This document shows, one piece after another, positions 34,844-44,826 of a DNA stretch of 64,000 bases. The position numbers were made by a program, and so were the translations under genes. The notes below the pieces were generated by a model. It worked only from the letters and a program-made list of their open reading frames with translations, was not told where the DNA came from and searched no databases. The DNA lies in assembly GCA_945877125.1 (NCBI GenBank), contig CAMCQT010000001.1, positions 4,450 to 68,449 on the forward strand. The letters are read 5' to 3'. Each line of letters starts with the position of its first letter. Positions within the stretch are counted from its first letter, which is position 1. Origin of the DNA: Candidatus Brevifilum fermentans (GTDB taxonomy: Bacteria; Chloroflexota; Anaerolineae; Anaerolineales; Villigracilaceae).

Positions 34844-34957
34844 TGTCATTGCGAGGGCGCTCTTTGCCCGACACTTGCGCCGTACGCCAGTGCGGTGAGC
34901 AATCTCTCATTTAGCGGAGCTTGCTTCGTCGGGAACAACATCCTCCTCGCAATGACA
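34844..34957. repeat. TGTCATTGCGAG element, copy 4, with nested 26-bp insert (34872-34897)
   Basis: Left arm matches copy 5 (38380) except for the insert. Confidence 0.9.
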
Positions 34958-34969
34958 TAGGACAAAACT

Positions 34970-36484
34970 ATGACCGAAATCGACAAAGACCTGCTCTCCA
35001 TTCAAGAAGCCCGCACCTTGGCGACACAAGCGCGTGACGCTCAGCGGAAATTTCTACACGCCACACAAGCCGAAGTGGATCGCATTTGCGCAGCAATGGC
35101 GCAAGCCGCCAGCGATGCTTCATTGCAATTGGCGCGCATGGCCGCAGAAGAAACCGGTTTCGGTGTGCCCGAACATAAAGTTCTAAAAAATCAACTGGCT
35201 TCACAGCTTTTGTGGAATGAGATCAAAGACACCCCCACCGTGGGCGTGATTCGCAATGACCCGCAAAAAGGGACGTATGACATTGCCTGGCCAATGGGCG
35301 TGATCGTGGCATTGACTCCATCCACCAACCCAACTTCGACCGCCATTTTCAAGACCTTGATCGCGGTCAAAGCACGCAATGCCATTGTCATCGCGCCGCA
35401 TCCCTCGGCGATCAAATGCACAACAGAAACCATGCGGATTATGGCGGAAGCCGGAGAACGCGCAGGAATGCCGAAGGGCTTAATCTCCAATATGACTCGT
35501 ATTTCACTGCCCGGCACACAGGAGTTGATGCGACACAAATACGTGGCGTTGATCCTTGCCACAGGCGGCTCGGACATGGTACGCGCGGCGCACTCGGTTG
35601 GGAAACCCGCCTACGGCGTGGGACCTGGCAATGTGCCGGTCTACGTGGATCGCTCGGCGGATATTCAACGCGCCGCAAAATACATCGTCGCCTCAAAGGC
35701 TTTTGACCATTCTGTAATTTGTGCCACCGAGCAATCTGTGGTCGCTGACCGTCCGATTGCCGCGCAGCTTGAAGAATTGATGAAAGCCGAAGGCGCGTAC
35801 TTTGCCAACGAAGAACAATCAAAGATTTTGGCGAAGAACCTGTTTGTCGGTCATTTGCCGAATCCGAAAGCCGTGGGGAAAAGTCCGCAACAACTGGCGC
35901 AGATGTACGGATTCAACGTGCCAGATTGGGCGCGGATCATCGTCTGCAAGTTGCGCGGAGTGGGCGCGGAAGATCCGCTTTCGGGCGAGAAGCTGACGAC
36001 CGTCCTCGGCTGGTACGAAGTGGACGGCTGGGAAGAAGGCTGTGAGCGCAGTCTGGAATTAATCAACTACGGCGGGCGCGGACATTCGCTCGTCATCCAT
36101 GCGATGGACAACAACATCATTATGAAATTCGGATTGGAAAAACCAGTCTTCCGAATTTTGGTCAACACCTTTGGCACGCTCGGCGCGACAGGCTACACCA
36201 CAGGTCTGGTTCCCTCCATGACCCTCGGCTCTGGCGGAGTCGGCGGCGCGATCACCGGCGACAATATCTCGGTGCATCATTTGTACAACATCAAAAGGTT
36301 GGCATACGAAATTCAAGCGCCGCCGCCCGCGGCATTTGCTCCAGGCGCAACGGATGACCCCGCTCAACGCCGCGCCTTCTCAAACAGCGGATATTCTGAG
36401 CCAGCGCCCATGCCCTCCTCGGCTTCGGTGGATGCTCAAGTGGAGGAGATCGTGAAGAGAGTTTTGATGGAGCTGAAAAAGTAA
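34970..36484 (+). CDS. eutE: Acylating acetaldehyde dehydrogenase with C-terminal encapsulation peptide
   Basis: PSTNPTST, ILATGG, GVGPGNVP, SKAFD..VICATEQ, SMTLG.G..GG..T.DN; C-terminal VEEIVKRVLMELKK. Confidence 0.9.
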   Translation: MTEIDKDLLSIQEARTLATQARDAQRKFLHATQAEVDRICAAMAQAASDASLQLARMAAEETGFGVPEHKVLKNQLASQLLWNEIKDTPTVGVIRNDPQKGTYDIAWPMGVIVALTPSTNPTSTAIFKTLIAVKARNAIVIAPHPSAIKCTTETMRIMAEAGERAGMPKGLISNMTRISLPGTQELMRHKYVALILATGGSDMVRAAHSVGKPAYGVGPGNVPVYVDRSADIQRAAKYIVASKAFDHSVICATEQSVVADRPIAAQLEELMKAEGAYFANEEQSKILAKNLFVGHLPNPKAVGKSPQQLAQMYGFNVPDWARIIVCKLRGVGAEDPLSGEKLTTVLGWYEVDGWEEGCERSLELINYGGRGHSLVIHAMDNNIIMKFGLEKPVFRILVNTFGTLGATGYTTGLVPSMTLGSGGVGGAITGDNISVHHLYNIKRLAYEIQAPPPAAFAPGATDDPAQRRAFSNSGYSEPAPMPSSASVDAQVEEIVKRVLMELKK

Positions 36485-36488
36485 AAAC

Positions 36489-36567
36489 CCCCTCACCCTA
36501 GCCCTCTCCCAAAGGGAGAGGGGATGAGACTCCCTTCCCCATCGGGGGAAGGGCTGGGGATGAGGGC
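36489..36567 (+). repeat. CCCTCACCC..GATGAGGG double-hairpin element (terminator-like)
   Basis: Two hairpins right after the eutE stop; homologous copy inside alaS. Confidence 0.9.
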
Positions 36568-42551: not shown

Positions 42552-42552
42552 A

Positions 42553-42625
42553 TTAACCACAAAGGACACGAAGGAACACAAAGGAAAACAAAAAACTTTG
42601 CGACCTTTGCGTGTTTCGCGGTGGA
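42553..42625. repeat. Inverted 9-mer arms (ACACGAAGG / CTTTGCG..)
   Basis: Related arms at 39993-40062, 41853, 42125-42175, 44831-44862. Confidence 0.7.
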
Positions 42626-42630
42626 AAATT

Positions 42631-44826
42631 ATGACAAACAAACATAACATCATTTTGCAACCCTCCGGCAGCCGCGGACAAGTGGAGGAAGGCCAGTCCA
42701 TCCGTTCTGCCGCGCGCGACCTGGGCGTGGAGATCGAATCCATTTGCGCCGAGAATGCCACTTGCGGCAAGTGCATGGTTTTAATAGAAGAAGGACGCTT
42801 CGAGAAGTACAACATGGATTCAAGGCGCGAGCATGTTTCACCTGTCACCGCCGAAGAAGCCGCGTATTTTGCCCGCAGACCCAAGTTGTTAAAAGACAAA
42901 GGCTGGGAAGTGGGACAGGTACGCCTTTCCTGTCAATGCAAAATACAAGGCGACGTATTGGTCAACGTGCCCGAGGAAAGCCGCGGAAATAAGCAGATCA
43001 TCCGCAAATCAGCGACGGAGCGCGAGATCGAGATCAAGCCGTCGATTCGGAAATATCTCGTCTCGATGAGTCCGCCCAATTTAGAGCGCCCGATTGCAGA
43101 CTGGGAACGCCTCGCCAAAGGGTTGGAAACTTCGATGGGACTTGTCCGCCGCGGCGAAGAACATCTCCCGCGCTGGTCAGATTTCACAGTGGATTACACC
43201 TGCCTGCGGACTTTATCCACCACCTTGCGCGAAGCAAAATGGAACGTGACCGTTTCAGTCTGGCAGGACAAGGAAATCATTCAGGTGCAGGCGGGCTATC
43301 ACGAAGACAGCTACGGCGCAGCCGTGGACATTGGATCAACGACTGTCGCTTTGTATTTGTGCAATTTACGCACGGGCGAAATTCTCGCCGCAGAATCAGA
43401 GATGAATCCGCAGATCGTGTATGGCGAAGATGTGATGTCACGTATTCAATACACCATTGAGCATCCAGATGGTTTAGAGAAATTGCACAAGGCAATTATC
43501 TCCACGCTGAATAAATTATTGAAACAGGCGGTGAAAACTGCAAACATGTCATTGCGAGCGCACTTTGCGACACTTGCGCCGCACGCCAGTGCAGGTGAGC
43601 AATCTCCAGATGAAGAAAGCGAGACACTTGCACCGCACGCAAGTGCAGGTGTTGCTTCGGACGAGGAACAAGTGCGCCCTCGCACATCGTCCCCGCAGGG
43701 GAATGACATAAAAGTGGAGGATATTCTTGAGATGGTACTGGTTGGCAATTCGACCATGCATCATCTGTTGTTGAATTTGCCGCCAAAATATCTGGGACTT
43801 GCGCCATTCGTGCCGGCAATTCACAAGTCAGTGGATGTGAAGGCGCGCGAGTTGGGATTGCATATCAACGCCGCGGGCAATATTCATGTGCTGCCGACCA
43901 TCGCATCCTTTGTCGGCGCAGATACCAGTGGATTGCTTCTCGCTGAAGAACCGCACAAGCAGGATGAAAATTGGCTGTTGATCGACGTTGGCACAAATGC
44001 CGAACTCGTTTTAGGAAATCGCACGCGACTGCTGTGTACATCCACGCCCACGGGGCCTGCGCTCGAAGGCGCACACGTGGAATATGGGATGCGCGCCGCG
44101 CCGGGTGCCATGGAACGCATCGAAATTGACGAGAAGACTCTGGAGCCAAGATACAAAGTCATCGGCGTGGATGGGTGGAACACAGACCATGCTGAGTTCA
44201 AGGGGCAGGTCAAGGGGATTTGCGGCTCCGCCATCATCGACGGAGTGGCAGAATTATTTCGGGCGGGAATCGTTGATTCTCGGGGCAAGTTCAAAAAAGG
44301 ACTGGAGTCGACGCGCATTCGTCAGGGCGAAAGCAGCTGGGAGTATGTCATCGCTTGGGCAGAGGAAACATCCATCGGGCGCGACATCCCCATGACCCAG
44401 CAGGATGTGAGACAAATTCAACTGGCGAAGGCGGCGTTGTTTGTTGCGGCGCGTACTTTATTGAAGCGCTTTGGTTTGCAATCTCCTGATAAAATCATCC
44501 TCGCGGGCGGCTTCGGCAGTTATATTGACAAGGAAAAAGCCATGCTGATCGGGCTGATTCCTGATTGCGTTTTGGATCATGTTTATGCGGTTGGAAACGC
44601 CGCAGGCGACGGAGCGCGCATTGCATTGCTGAATGTTGAGAAGCGCAGGGAAATCGAATCGGTGACGCGCAAAGTGGAACGCTTTGAATTACCAACTGAT
44701 CCTGAGTTTCAAAATCAATTCATGCTCGCCACCAGTTTTCCGCACATGAGCGAGGCGTTTGAACACATCGCGCATTTGATTCCAAACCGAGTGGTGGATT
44801 CAATGGCGAAAAATTTTATGAAATAA
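42631..44826 (+). CDS. 2Fe-2S / ASKHA-domain corrinoid reductive activator (RACo/DUF4445-like)
   Basis: CAENATCGKC..RLSCQC, AVDIGSTTV, NPQ..YGEDVMSRI, SFVGADT, IDVGTNAE, GPALEG, GICGS, QLAKAA, GNAAG.GA. Confidence 0.9.
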   Translation: MTNKHNIILQPSGSRGQVEEGQSIRSAARDLGVEIESICAENATCGKCMVLIEEGRFEKYNMDSRREHVSPVTAEEAAYFARRPKLLKDKGWEVGQVRLSCQCKIQGDVLVNVPEESRGNKQIIRKSATEREIEIKPSIRKYLVSMSPPNLERPIADWERLAKGLETSMGLVRRGEEHLPRWSDFTVDYTCLRTLSTTLREAKWNVTVSVWQDKEIIQVQAGYHEDSYGAAVDIGSTTVALYLCNLRTGEILAAESEMNPQIVYGEDVMSRIQYTIEHPDGLEKLHKAIISTLNKLLKQAVKTANMSLRAHFATLAPHASAGEQSPDEESETLAPHASAGVASDEEQVRPRTSSPQGNDIKVEDILEMVLVGNSTMHHLLLNLPPKYLGLAPFVPAIHKSVDVKARELGLHINAAGNIHVLPTIASFVGADTSGLLLAEEPHKQDENWLLIDVGTNAELVLGNRTRLLCTSTPTGPALEGAHVEYGMRAAPGAMERIEIDEKTLEPRYKVIGVDGWNTDHAEFKGQVKGICGSAIIDGVAELFRAGIVDSRGKFKKGLESTRIRQGESSWEYVIAWAEETSIGRDIPMTQQDVRQIQLAKAALFVAARTLLKRFGLQSPDKIILAGGFGSYIDKEKAMLIGLIPDCVLDHVYAVGNAAGDGARIALLNVEKRREIESVTRKVERFELPTDPEFQNQFMLATSFPHMSEAFEHIAHLIPNRVVDSMAKNFMK
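43547..43708. repeat. TGTCATTGCGAG element, copy 6: 162 bp, three nested inserts, in frame in the RACo-like gene
   Basis: Deleting it gives an uninterrupted ...KTAN-IKVEDILEMV. Confidence 0.92.

Follow-up and report, generated by a model that had tools for sequence, protein, structure and literature searches.

The small dispersed repeats (SDR elements) of cyanobacteria are reported only from the Nostocaceae lineage, where one of them, SDR5, was found inserted precisely between the third and fourth base of HIP1 (PMC4390886, PMC5861425). Later papers, of 2011-2018, still treat their origin as open. Elhai et al. reportedly proposed in 2008 that these elements move through an RNA intermediate and, to our knowledge, elements of less than 30 nt with a precise, duplication-free insertion have been reported only once, in 2008, from cyanobacteria of the Nostoc type. 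Insertion at A/T, no duplication and a 3' hairpin form the signature of HUH-type transposition, of the Helitron/IS91 and IS200/IS605 types: Helitrons insert between A and T, IS608 prefers single-stranded DNA of the lagging-strand template, and the ends of IS200/IS605 elements require two hairpins and a target of 4-5 nt. REP and REPIN modules, which are 20-40 nt long, join a short unpaired tag, GTAG or CGTC, to a stem-loop, and go with RAYT (TnpA_REP) transposases (PMC3733652, PMC3116915), and the Rickettsia palindromic elements (RPE) are coding palindromes (cited in PMC3733652).

We now turn to a window of 64,000 nucleotides from Candidatus Brevifilum fermentans, in which an initial annotation had located four copies of a 27-base repeat. 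All four are found at the coordinates first given, where chance, evaluated with shuffles, predicts 0 (0.00-0.01): CACTTGCRCCGYACGCNAGTGCAGGTG matches with zero mismatches at 42049-42075(-), 43571-43597(+) and 43625-43651(+), and its 22-nt core also matches at 34872-34893(+), in a copy that is the 26-nt form without A23. As the annotation had observed, GA immediately precedes each copy on its own strand (4/4); target duplication is absent at all four. We estimate at about 85% the probability that these repeats represent a non-autonomous family of micro insertion elements in Anaerolineae, 18-27 nt long and readable on a single strand, made of a conserved 5' tag and a hairpin that extends to the 3' end. 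They would be inserted precisely at A^T/A, with the tag beside the A and no target duplication, and preferably into DNA prone to folding or slippage: palindromes between cistrons, short tandem repeats, and other members of the same families.

The hosts of the four copies are those that had been described. Three copies lie in TGTCATTGCGAG...CTCGCAATGACA palindromic elements, of which the window contains seven; the fourth is in a tandem repeat of 9-mers. The 26-nt form, CACTTGCGCCGTACGCCAGTGCGGTG, occupies 34872..34897(+) in the left arm of the host element 34844..34957, between a BMC-shell gene and an aldehyde dehydrogenase gene, and is inserted at CCCGA^AGCAATC. Its filled arm, TGTCATTGCGAGGGCGCTCTTTGCCCGA^AGCAATC, is exactly the left arm of the empty host element at 38380..38473, with zero duplicated bases; this paralogous empty site bears out the earlier claim of filled and empty arms. 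The copy CACTTGCGCCGCACGCTAGTGCAGGTG at 42049..42075(-) splits the middle unit of an array of three ACACAAAGG-type 9-mers (42037..42090, minus strand): the interrupted unit, AAACGA^AGT, has an intact ACACAAAGG on either side. A filled site of the same kind, ACACGA^AGTACACAAAG, is present in another locus (L082). Further 9-mer units of this type are seen in the loose ends of related strains.

The two remaining copies belong to a host element at 43547..43709 that is itself an in-frame insert in a RACo / DUF4445 gene (2Fe-2S + ASKHA; 42598..44826, plus strand), and that consists of 91 nt of host and of nested inserts of 27, 27 and 18 nt. In the left arm, GCGA^AGCAATC is the insertion site of the left copy (43571..43597, plus strand); in the right arm, GAGA^TTGCTTCG is that of the right copy (43625..43651, plus strand), which matches the consensus exactly. 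Both copies are in frame within ORF 42598-44826 and each is read as TLAPHASAG, in agreement with the claim that the frame is preserved. The third insert, CATCGTCCCCGCAGGGGA, is an 18-nt element of a second kind, family C (the four copies above are of family A), with a CATCG tag and a 5-bp hairpin: it lies at 43685..43702(+), at CTCGCA^ATGACA in the terminal repeat of the host, and is translated as TSSPQG.

Comparison with sister genomes, which the annotation had suggested, reveals orthologous presence/absence polymorphism at this very site. The loop that follows ...KQAVKTAN is a hot spot of insertion, and close orthologues of the RACo gene are found, at the DNA level, empty, with the host only, with the host and the left copy, with the right copy only, or with an element of family B nested in one of family A; the window has both copies and the family C 18-mer. 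The host element lacks the left copy in L121/P0037, whose sequence GCGAC is one base off, and in P0016, seen as protein only. In the nearest orthologue, L120/P0001 (94% identity), GAGATTGCTTCG is unbroken, which means that the right copy of the window is missing, and so is the 18-mer. In L123 the 18-mer is present without family A copies, and a 23-nt relative of family C occurs in L031. The polymorphism could be old.

The 22-mer core is found in at least 116 loci of 73 species-level assemblies (MAGs), nearly all of Chloroflexota/Anaerolineae; these 116 loci hold 121 copies or more, and the window four. The micro-elements measure 18, 23, 26 or 27 nt. They are discrete units: the core has at least eight unrelated sequence contexts, which rules out a fixed internal part of a larger element. 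Copies are embedded in tandem short repeats, in palindromic elements and in copies of themselves, with both self-nesting and triple nesting. The annotation saw the repeat only nested, which is too strong for the wider sample: judged by eye, about 90% of the sites are in palindromes, tandem repeats or own copies, but about 10% look unique, such as a copy inside the tnpA gene of L114. The preference for structured repeats does hold, since reconstructed empty flanks match other loci at 49% of the sites, versus 6% of control positions.

Could the 27-mer itself be immobile, its copies deriving from a few ancient chance insertions that increased in number as the host palindromes transposed and converted one another? 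In the genome JAJRXB01, six loci (L003, L008, L069, L099, L101 and L107) do share the same composite and upstream flank, and left copies at the RACo site diverge between lineages about as much as the adjacent DNA. However, such passive spread fits poorly with a same junction rule, A^W, at eight or more unrelated contexts and at unique-sequence sites, with self-nesting and triple nesting, or with the fact that the right copy, specific to the window, is the exact consensus; we regard it as improbable.

The near constancy of the 27-mer over 73 species-level genomes, together with its location in intercistronic palindromes of operons, could also designate a selected functional motif, either a protein-binding site or a hairpin for RNA stability or termination, whose presence and absence would reflect gain and loss under selection. 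Yet the copies run either way with respect to local genes, 50 in sense and 39 in antisense (p = 0.29), some fall inside coding regions, where they are simply translated, and one is inside a transposase pseudogene. Function would not explain the precise insertion junctions and is, in any case, compatible with mobility; that it should replace selfish insertion altogether seems very improbable.

The micro-insertion reading is supported by the rule that governs the junctions. Over 117 unique sites, base -1 is an A at 110 (94%, p = 3e-60), base +1 is T or A at 113 (97%) and C at none, and no site shows a duplication. The two main targets are A^T, with 57 sites, and A^A, with 49. All 49 insertions at A^A have the forward orientation; at A^T, which is symmetric, both orientations occur, with a ratio of 11:1 at CTCGCAA^TGAC. 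Families B and C obey the same A^ rule, with the same plan of tag and hairpin as family A, and the host palindromes are themselves flanked by A...T in 5-6 of the 7 copies in the window, as well as at the RACo site.

These junctions can be read in another way: a nascent strand stalled at a structured repeat could jump to an abundant 27-mer copy, guided by microhomologies of 1 nt (a left A and a right W), and then return, with no dedicated enzyme. Template switching of this type would propagate the A...W that flanks every copy, most sites are indeed in palindromes and tandem repeats, and L035 carries tandem units of the form [27]A[27]. But a microhomology of one base leaves unexplained why only these few sequences are copied, and copy choice accounts neither for the conserved tag and the covarying stem nor for the strictness of the orientation. 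We give this explanation little credence.

As to anatomy, an invariant 6-nt tag CACYTG, which is CACTTG in family A and CACCTG in family B (the tag of family C is CATCG), is followed by a hairpin of 20-21 nt with compensatory changes. The termini are CAC... and ...GTG or ...GGG. The imperfect hairpin of the annotation does exist, but is better placed at positions 7-27, where the fold is of minimum or near-minimum energy and abuts the 3' end, than at 1-21, an overlapping fold that is broken in about 40% of the variants. In the outer stem, positions 7-10 pair with the final four bases in 108 of 108 cells (27 distinct variants), through exchanges A-T/G.T/C-G and C-G/T-A, a covariation that amounts to few independent events.

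It is this stem that brings in the main rival to movement as DNA, in which transcription from tag to hairpin would yield a small structured RNA, and a reverse transcriptase or a repair-linked activity would then copy or ligate this RNA into DNA at A^W. Pair 8/26 is A-T, G.T or C-G only: G.T(U) is tolerated on the tag strand and the mirror A.C is never seen. With RNA parameters, 26 of the 27 variants have a forward strand that folds better than the complementary one. In the abundant 26-nt variant the stem persists only through two G.T wobbles; this hairpin is weak as DNA (-5.0 kcal/mol, z = -0.66) and strong as RNA (-12 kcal/mol), which inclines the evidence to an RNA stage. In a metatranscriptome, words of the 27-mer reach a depth of 258-945 versus 2-8 for the flanking gene, an excess that may stem from many host transcripts or from DNA carry-over. 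Against an RNA intermediate, the RNA contigs show no joints that skip the copies, the orientation relative to genes is unbiased, an RNA of 27 nt is unable to catalyse its own insertion, and neither a reverse transcriptase nor a gene for the source RNA was identified. On balance, we consider this route unlikely.

Our best guess for the movement, at somewhat less than even odds, is single-strand insertion of the HUH type, of which the class of enzyme, the intermediate of single-stranded DNA and any ongoing activity are inferred. What the sequences show is that the elements are discrete and nested, follow target and orientation rules, are present or absent between orthologues, and have a covarying hairpin. 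A trans-acting HUH-type endonuclease/transposase, either Y1 (RAYT, IS200/IS605 TnpA) or Y2 (IS91/Helitron), would read the tag and hairpin on one strand, and cut at A^CAC and 3' of the hairpin; the excised piece would then be pasted on the 3' side of an A exposed in structure-prone single-stranded DNA at replication forks. No mobilising gene was found with the copies in the loci. A tblastn search of the 0.94 Mb of loci, with an IS200 TnpA query, has a single match, the IS605-type tnpA of L114, a degraded gene interrupted by a copy and the sole Y1 gene seen; no other HUH gene was seen in these 0.94 Mb, nor was a REPtron-like arrangement of a RAYT gene flanked by inverted copies, and the inverted pairs of L035 lie within a long ORF. 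The terms "hyper-parasitic" and "templated", used in the annotation, are labels; no parent element or nuclease gene that ends in the hairpin was found in the loci.

A bolder conjecture, which we hold to be rather doubtful, is that tag-plus-hairpin modules of 18-27 nt have in Anaerolineae a transposition system of their own, active and as yet undescribed, with a simple A^W rule, whose insertions remodel non-coding palindromes and protein loops. If true, no mobile DNA smaller than these modules would be known. As many of the sampled MAGs contain the elements, phylogenetic profiling could reveal the enzyme. On the practical side, the elements break assemblies, create in-frame protein insertions of 9 residues, and make the hypothetical peptides of Chloroflexota MAGs look more diverse than they are.

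The annotation recognised no described family. This stands for the sequence, with zero Rfam matches at copies or host elements (gathering score or E <= 1) and no match in literature searches, but not for the kind, since SDRs, and REPs with their tag and hairpin, are of this kind. Like the RPE, the TGTCATTGCGAG host element is in frame in a functional protein gene, and is translated together with its nested 27-mers; the likeness is limited to host elements of about 81-94 nt and excludes the 27-mers, and we know of no nested secondary inserts in the description of RPE. With IS200/IS605 and PATEs, the micro-elements share the lack of target duplication and the insertion in one orientation 3' of a fixed short target, but they have a single hairpin (7-27) and a 6-nt tail instead of separate left and right subterminal hairpins, and the target is, contrary to that of IS200/IS605, essentially of 1-2 nt. 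With Helitron/IS91 they share insertion at A/T without duplication and a 3' hairpin, but neither the 5' TC and 3' CTRR termini nor, in the loci, any RepHel/IS91 transposase. HUH transposons range from at least 100 nt to several kb, versus 18-27 nt here, with no encoded or linked transposase.

REP/REPIN modules are also close: they have the tag and stem-loop, G.T pairs in the stem, some families nested in longer palindromes, some copies in frame inside ORFs, and a vertically persistent, lineage-wide spread. However, the tags are here CACYTG or CATCG, with no GTAG or CGTC on either strand, the copies are mostly singletons rather than inverted doublets, no flanking RAYT gene was found in the loci, and REP families usually have a species-specific sequence, whereas the micro-element is nearly constant across species.

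The closest likeness is with SDR1-SDR8 of Nostoc punctiforme and its relatives, dispersed repeats of the same size class (21-27 nt) that are also embedded in tandem heptamer-type repeats, in mini-transposons and in their own copies, and whose dissimilar families have a common fold with compensatory changes, as families A, B and C do. The host is here of the phylum Chloroflexota, and the micro-elements, compared by description, are therefore at most an analogue of SDRs. The Anaerolineae system also goes beyond the cyanobacterial case: it has a clear target rule, A^T/A, with a fixed orientation, an anatomy of tag and 3' hairpin common to three families and, inside one conserved protein gene, a natural series of alleles, empty, filled or nested, across dozens of close relatives. 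The question of the mover is therefore directly testable, by comparative genomics and oligonucleotide biochemistry, and if a dedicated system exists, its enzyme would also explain the SDR phenomenon, of which we would have here a second, data-rich and independent example in another phylum.

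The initial annotation reported four copies of the family A micro-element, a repeat of 26-27 nt. The degenerate 27-mer indeed matches the window perfectly at 42049-42075 on the minus strand and at 43571-43597 and 43625-43651 on the plus strand, and the 22-nt core adds a match at 34872-34893 on the plus strand, for a chance expectation of 0.00-0.01 under dinucleotide-preserving shuffles. The copy at 34872 is the 26-nt form CACTTGCGCCGTACGCCAGTGCGGTG, without the A at position 23. Read on its own strand, each of the four copies directly follows GA. Seven palindromic host elements, with termini TGTCATTGCGAG...CTCGCAATGACA, are found at 22344-22424, 31632-31725, 33112-33195, 34844-34957, 38380-38473, 43547-43709 and 46960-47060; the palindrome itself is about 81-94 nt long and is laid out as TGTCATTGCGAG...CGAAGCAATCYCC-loop-GGAGATTGCTTCG...CTCGCAATGACA. 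Copy 34872 splits element 34844 in its left arm, at CCCGA^AGCAATC, where ^ marks the insertion point; copies 43571 and 43625, called left and right below, split the two arms of element 43547 at GCGA^AGCAATC and GAGA^TTGCTTCG; and copy 42049 interrupts a run of three 9-mers in its middle unit (ACACAAAGG / AAACGA^AGT / ACACAAAGG). Element 38380 offers a paralogous empty site: its matching left arm is unbroken and otherwise identical to that of 34844, with zero duplicated bases, as first described.

The host palindromes occupy gaps between the cistrons of an operon for ethanolamine utilisation (eutA / eutB / eutC / BMC shell / aldehyde dehydrogenase), the one in-gene element being 43547, inside ORF 42598-44826, where it is translated as MSLR..AKQSP..EIASG..PRNDI. 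Read depth suggests tens of copies of the palindrome per genome equivalent, and a literature search for its terminus GTCATTGCGAG returned unrelated primer matches only. The window derives from a lake-water population of Anaerolineales and also holds an rRNA operon (57065-62336, minus strand); 95% of the words sampled from its interval 42000-45000 are present in sequencing run X1. Another mobile or indel-prone element occupies 41898-42029: about 132 bp in length, it contains a long hairpin ggattgcggactttagtccgca...gcggactaaagtccgcaatcc, is bounded by ACCTTACGCA / TGCGTAAGGT, has chance miRNA-like matches only in Rfam, and is skipped in contigs of related lake strains (runs X2-X4), which join 41897 to 42030 with CAT between.

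A scan for the 22-nt core, with one genome per species, yields, among the matches listed, at least 116 loci and at least 121 copies from at least 73 assemblies. All but four of the listed loci carry the label Chloroflexota, and most are assigned to Anaerolineales or Anaerolineae; the core is also present on three IMG/VR contigs, classed as viral, two of which have the same sequence (L117 and L119; the third is L118). The contexts are many and unrelated: the TGTCATTGCGAG host family (CGA^AGCAATC, AGCAA^TCTC, CTCGCAA^TGACA) and a sister family of it (GTCATTCTGAGCGAAGCGA^AGAATCTC); a GTTGGTCGAGTA...CGTA^TCGAAACCAAC family; short tandem repeats such as GGAAGGA^TGAAGGATGAA, CCAATTACCAA^TTACCA, TCGTAAA^TCGTAAA and TCCGCGTCCA^TCCGCGTCCA; small local palindromes (GGGCGGA^TTGCCAATCCGCCC); the CATCG-tagged mini-hairpin of family C; and family A copies themselves (...ACGCA^AGTGC...). 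When empty flanks are reconstructed, 49% of the sites match other loci, versus 6% of random control positions. Family A is thus no constant component of a single larger element. The initial annotation saw an insert found only nested in other repeats: the nesting, with filled and empty sites, stands, and its exclusivity does not, since about 10% of sites lie in apparently unique DNA, among them a tnpA gene in locus L114.

We gathered 27 distinct forms of family A, in which positions C1 A2 C3 T5 G6 C7 C9 G15 G19 T20 G21 C22 are invariant. Stem pairs were tallied with a script that started at the 3' end, as MAFFT puts the gap of the 26-mers terminally. Positions 7-10 pair with the final four bases in every one of 108 cells; at pair 8/26, 12 variants have A-T, 10 G.T and 5 C-G, and at pair 10/24, 23 have C-G and 4 T-A, a covariation that comes from related sequences and few independent events. 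The register of the inner stem shifts among variants, yet a stem is present in all: A23 bulges out in the main form, is missing from the 26-mers and pairs with T11 in a single variant, and the G12 variants have instead a C23 that pairs with G11. For every forward variant, the hairpin 7-27 is the minimum-energy fold or close to it, and under DNA parameters the main form has it as its minimum-energy fold, with an ensemble frequency of 0.80. A full-length hairpin 1-9/19-27, or "terminal inverted repeat", is ruled out, being broken in many variants, and a hairpin 1-21 is weaker and loses T5-A17 in 11 of the 27. The paired region and the rejected alternatives therefore define the plan of the element: a 6-nt tag, CACYTG, followed by a hairpin of 20-21 nt. 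The stem on the tag strand is under selection.

Two sister families, each preceded by A, follow the same plan: family B is CACCTG + CCCTGGCGGGCGGTGCCAGGG, and family C is CATCG followed by TCCCC-GCA-GGGGA or by TCCCGA-TATTCT-TCGGGA, with a 23-nt form CATCGTCCCGATATTCTTCGGGA. Family C occurs at 43685-43702 of the window (18 nt), at 10995-11012 of L123 and on the minus strand of L031 (offset about 5461), and it is inserted after an A in host termini (CTCGCA^ATGACA and CTCA^GAGTGACA). Three levels of nesting, family A within family C within a host palindrome, are seen in L006, L089 and L109.

Because family A begins with C and finishes with G, its insertion junctions are unambiguous. Among the matches listed, the collected loci and the window provide 117 unique sites: position -1 is A in 110 (94%, against a background of 23%, p = 3e-60), and position -2 is G in 60%. 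Position +1 is T in 60 sites, A in 53, G in 4 and C in none. Removing the dominant host families leaves 70 sites, with A at -1 in 63 and, at +1, T in 50 and A in 16. Target duplication, looked for at the 117 junctions, is absent. At A^A sites the tag adjoins the 5' A in 49 cases out of 49, the mirror arrangement T...T never occurring (p = 4e-15); at symmetric A^T sites both orientations are present, with a skew of 11:1 at CTCGCAA^TGAC. Relative to neighbouring or enclosing genes, as delimited by a crude ORF caller, 50 copies are sense and 39 antisense, which is no bias (p = 0.29). The copies are discrete modules, joined to their targets by a precise, duplication-free and strand-specific junction after A. 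They also prefer structure-prone repeats. The fold energy of 60-nt empty sites, a stretch shorter than the host palindromes, has a median of -14.3 versus -12.7 at control A^W sites, a modest difference only (p = 0.002). An A at position 8 goes mostly with A^T sites (46:17) and a G with A^A sites (29:11), with a Fisher p = 7e-6 over 117 sites that are non-independent. Passive spread, through host transposition or gene conversion, accounts for some copies, such as those at six loci of genome JAJRXB01 that share one composite; as a general explanation it is improbable, for it leaves unexplained a junction rule common to unrelated contexts.

Presence/absence polymorphism between orthologues is found at ORF 42598-44826, which encodes a RACo/DUF4445 corrinoid-activation protein, its orthologues carrying the Pfam domains RACo_linker, Raco_middle and RACo_C_ter. 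The composite of element 43547 is wholly in frame, each 27-mer encoding TLAPHASAG; a copy in L117/L119 is in frame within an ORF and reads TLAPHASAG again. The 120 orthologues listed, of 676-738 aa and 81-94% identity, differ mostly after ...KQAVKTAN. We compared the DNA of six loci (L120-L125) with the window. The gene is empty in L124 (...GCAAAGATCAAAATC...); L121 has the host element alone (GCGACGCAATCTCC); L120, whose protein is 94% identical and nearest to the window in a neighbour-joining tree, has the host and the left 27-mer only; the window has the host, both 27-mers and an 18-nt insert CATCGTCCCCGCAGGGGA at CTCGCA^ATGACA; L123 has the host and the 18-mer (10995-11012), nothing else; in L122 a different 27-mer, CACCTGCCCTGGCGGGCAGTGCCAGGG, is nested within the left copy at GCA^AGT; and L125 has a CACCTGCCCTGGCGGGCAGTGCCAGGG-type 27-mer, of a second family, at CTCGCA^ATGACA, together with a left copy. 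At the protein level, orthologue P0097 shows a right-arm copy only. In the tree, computed with the insert left out, the window's clade intermingles host-only with host-plus-left forms, and the window alone has the right copy, an exact consensus, and the 18-mer. The states therefore come from separate events of gain, or of precise loss, at one orthologous locus.

Contigs of the lake strains (X2-X4) read GCGA-AGCAATCTCCTGAAGACGAGA-TTGCTTCGG, joining 43570 to 43652 with both copies absent; the orthology of this form is unproven, because the short side of the joint is just 20-23 nt. Around copy 34872, Logan contigs of sister strains break at repeats. The RACo loop is a hot spot where several repeat families, and not family A alone, insert: at the equivalent of 43540-43715, orthologues of other lineages have quite different inserts, such as KDLHDTDGLDTGEESARPTRPAGI, ERISESANQRGEESARPRGSESAAI and EKISESSDSTSQRF. 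At the equivalent of 43570/43598, L121 reads GCGACGCAATC where GCGAAGCAATC is expected, as would result if 27 nt were removed, one base out of register, from a filled site; either an excision footprint or a mere point change could account for it. That family A is purely a functional motif is very improbable, as this would not explain precise junctions within genes and pseudogenes.

The features of family A, namely duplication-free insertion between A and T/A, a 3'-terminal hairpin and strict strandedness, together form the signature of transposition by HUH endonucleases, as in Helitron/IS91, IS200/IS605 and RAYT-REP. We tentatively favour, with a probability of about 0.4, movement by an HUH-type single-strand endonuclease/transposase acting in trans, which would read tag and hairpin on a single strand. 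The host palindromes are likewise flanked by A...T in 5-6 of the 7 window copies and at the RACo site, where the host element is inserted at A^T with no duplication, a hint of machinery in common with the micro-elements. A single hairpin and a target of 1-2 nt count against the HUH reading. The parent element or nuclease ending in this hairpin that the initial annotation envisaged did not emerge: tblastn with an IS200 TnpA query found no HUH gene linked to copies among the collected loci, and a search for tagless hairpins gave three truncated or adjacent copies only. The one Y1 gene returned was that of L114 (303-701, minus strand), a degraded IS605-type tnpA (Y1 HUH) with tnpB downstream; since a family A copy interrupts it, immediately upstream of its PDHVHLL (HUH) motif, this gene is a target and not a parent. 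The location may be coincidental, or may hint that transposase genes are targets. L035 has two tandem pairs [27]A[27], at 134-183 and 1229-1278, in opposite orientation and 1 kb apart, beside TGACCCC-type heptamer repeats; C, not A, precedes the first copy of each. We rejected these REPtron-like inverted pairs as a parent, both being within one long open reading frame.

The HUH reading competes chiefly with an RNA intermediate, a route reportedly proposed for cyanobacterial small dispersed repeats (SDRs). Stems contain G.T wobbles and never the mirror A.C; with RNA parameters the forward strand outfolds its complement in 26 of 27 variants; and the common 26-mer is a poor hairpin as DNA and a good one as RNA. 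The 27-mer motif is present in RNA: in a sediment metatranscriptome (X24), 27-mer words from positions 43564-43651 of the window reach a contig depth of 258-945, compared with 2-8 for a distant relative's flanking gene, an abundance that is not decisive. Neither a reverse transcriptase nor a source RNA gene was identified, and we consider this route rather unlikely.

Rfam, searched both at gathering score and with E <= 1, has no family for the copies or the host elements, and our literature searches found no paper describing family A. The initial annotation did not recognise it from any described family; the SDRs are a precedent for its kind. The SDR families of Nostoc are reportedly 21-27 nt long, nested in heptamer repeats, mini-transposons and themselves, and are said to have a common fold backed by compensatory changes; they are the nearest match to family A in behaviour. 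SDR5 is inserted precisely between bases 3 and 4 of HIP1 (PMC4390886), and the origin of SDRs was still an open question as of 2011 (PMC3116915). REPs likewise combine a tag with a hairpin, sometimes lie nested in palindromes and can be inserted in frame in ORFs (PMC3733652), all features of family A; however, family A has neither of their defining tags, GTAG or CGTC, and no RAYT linkage was found among the collected loci. A similar mechanism may operate in IS200/IS605 and Helitron/IS91, but family A differs from them in end structure and termini. Family A thus consists of real, non-random and widespread micro insertion elements, of a sort that is rare and unexplained, but already known.
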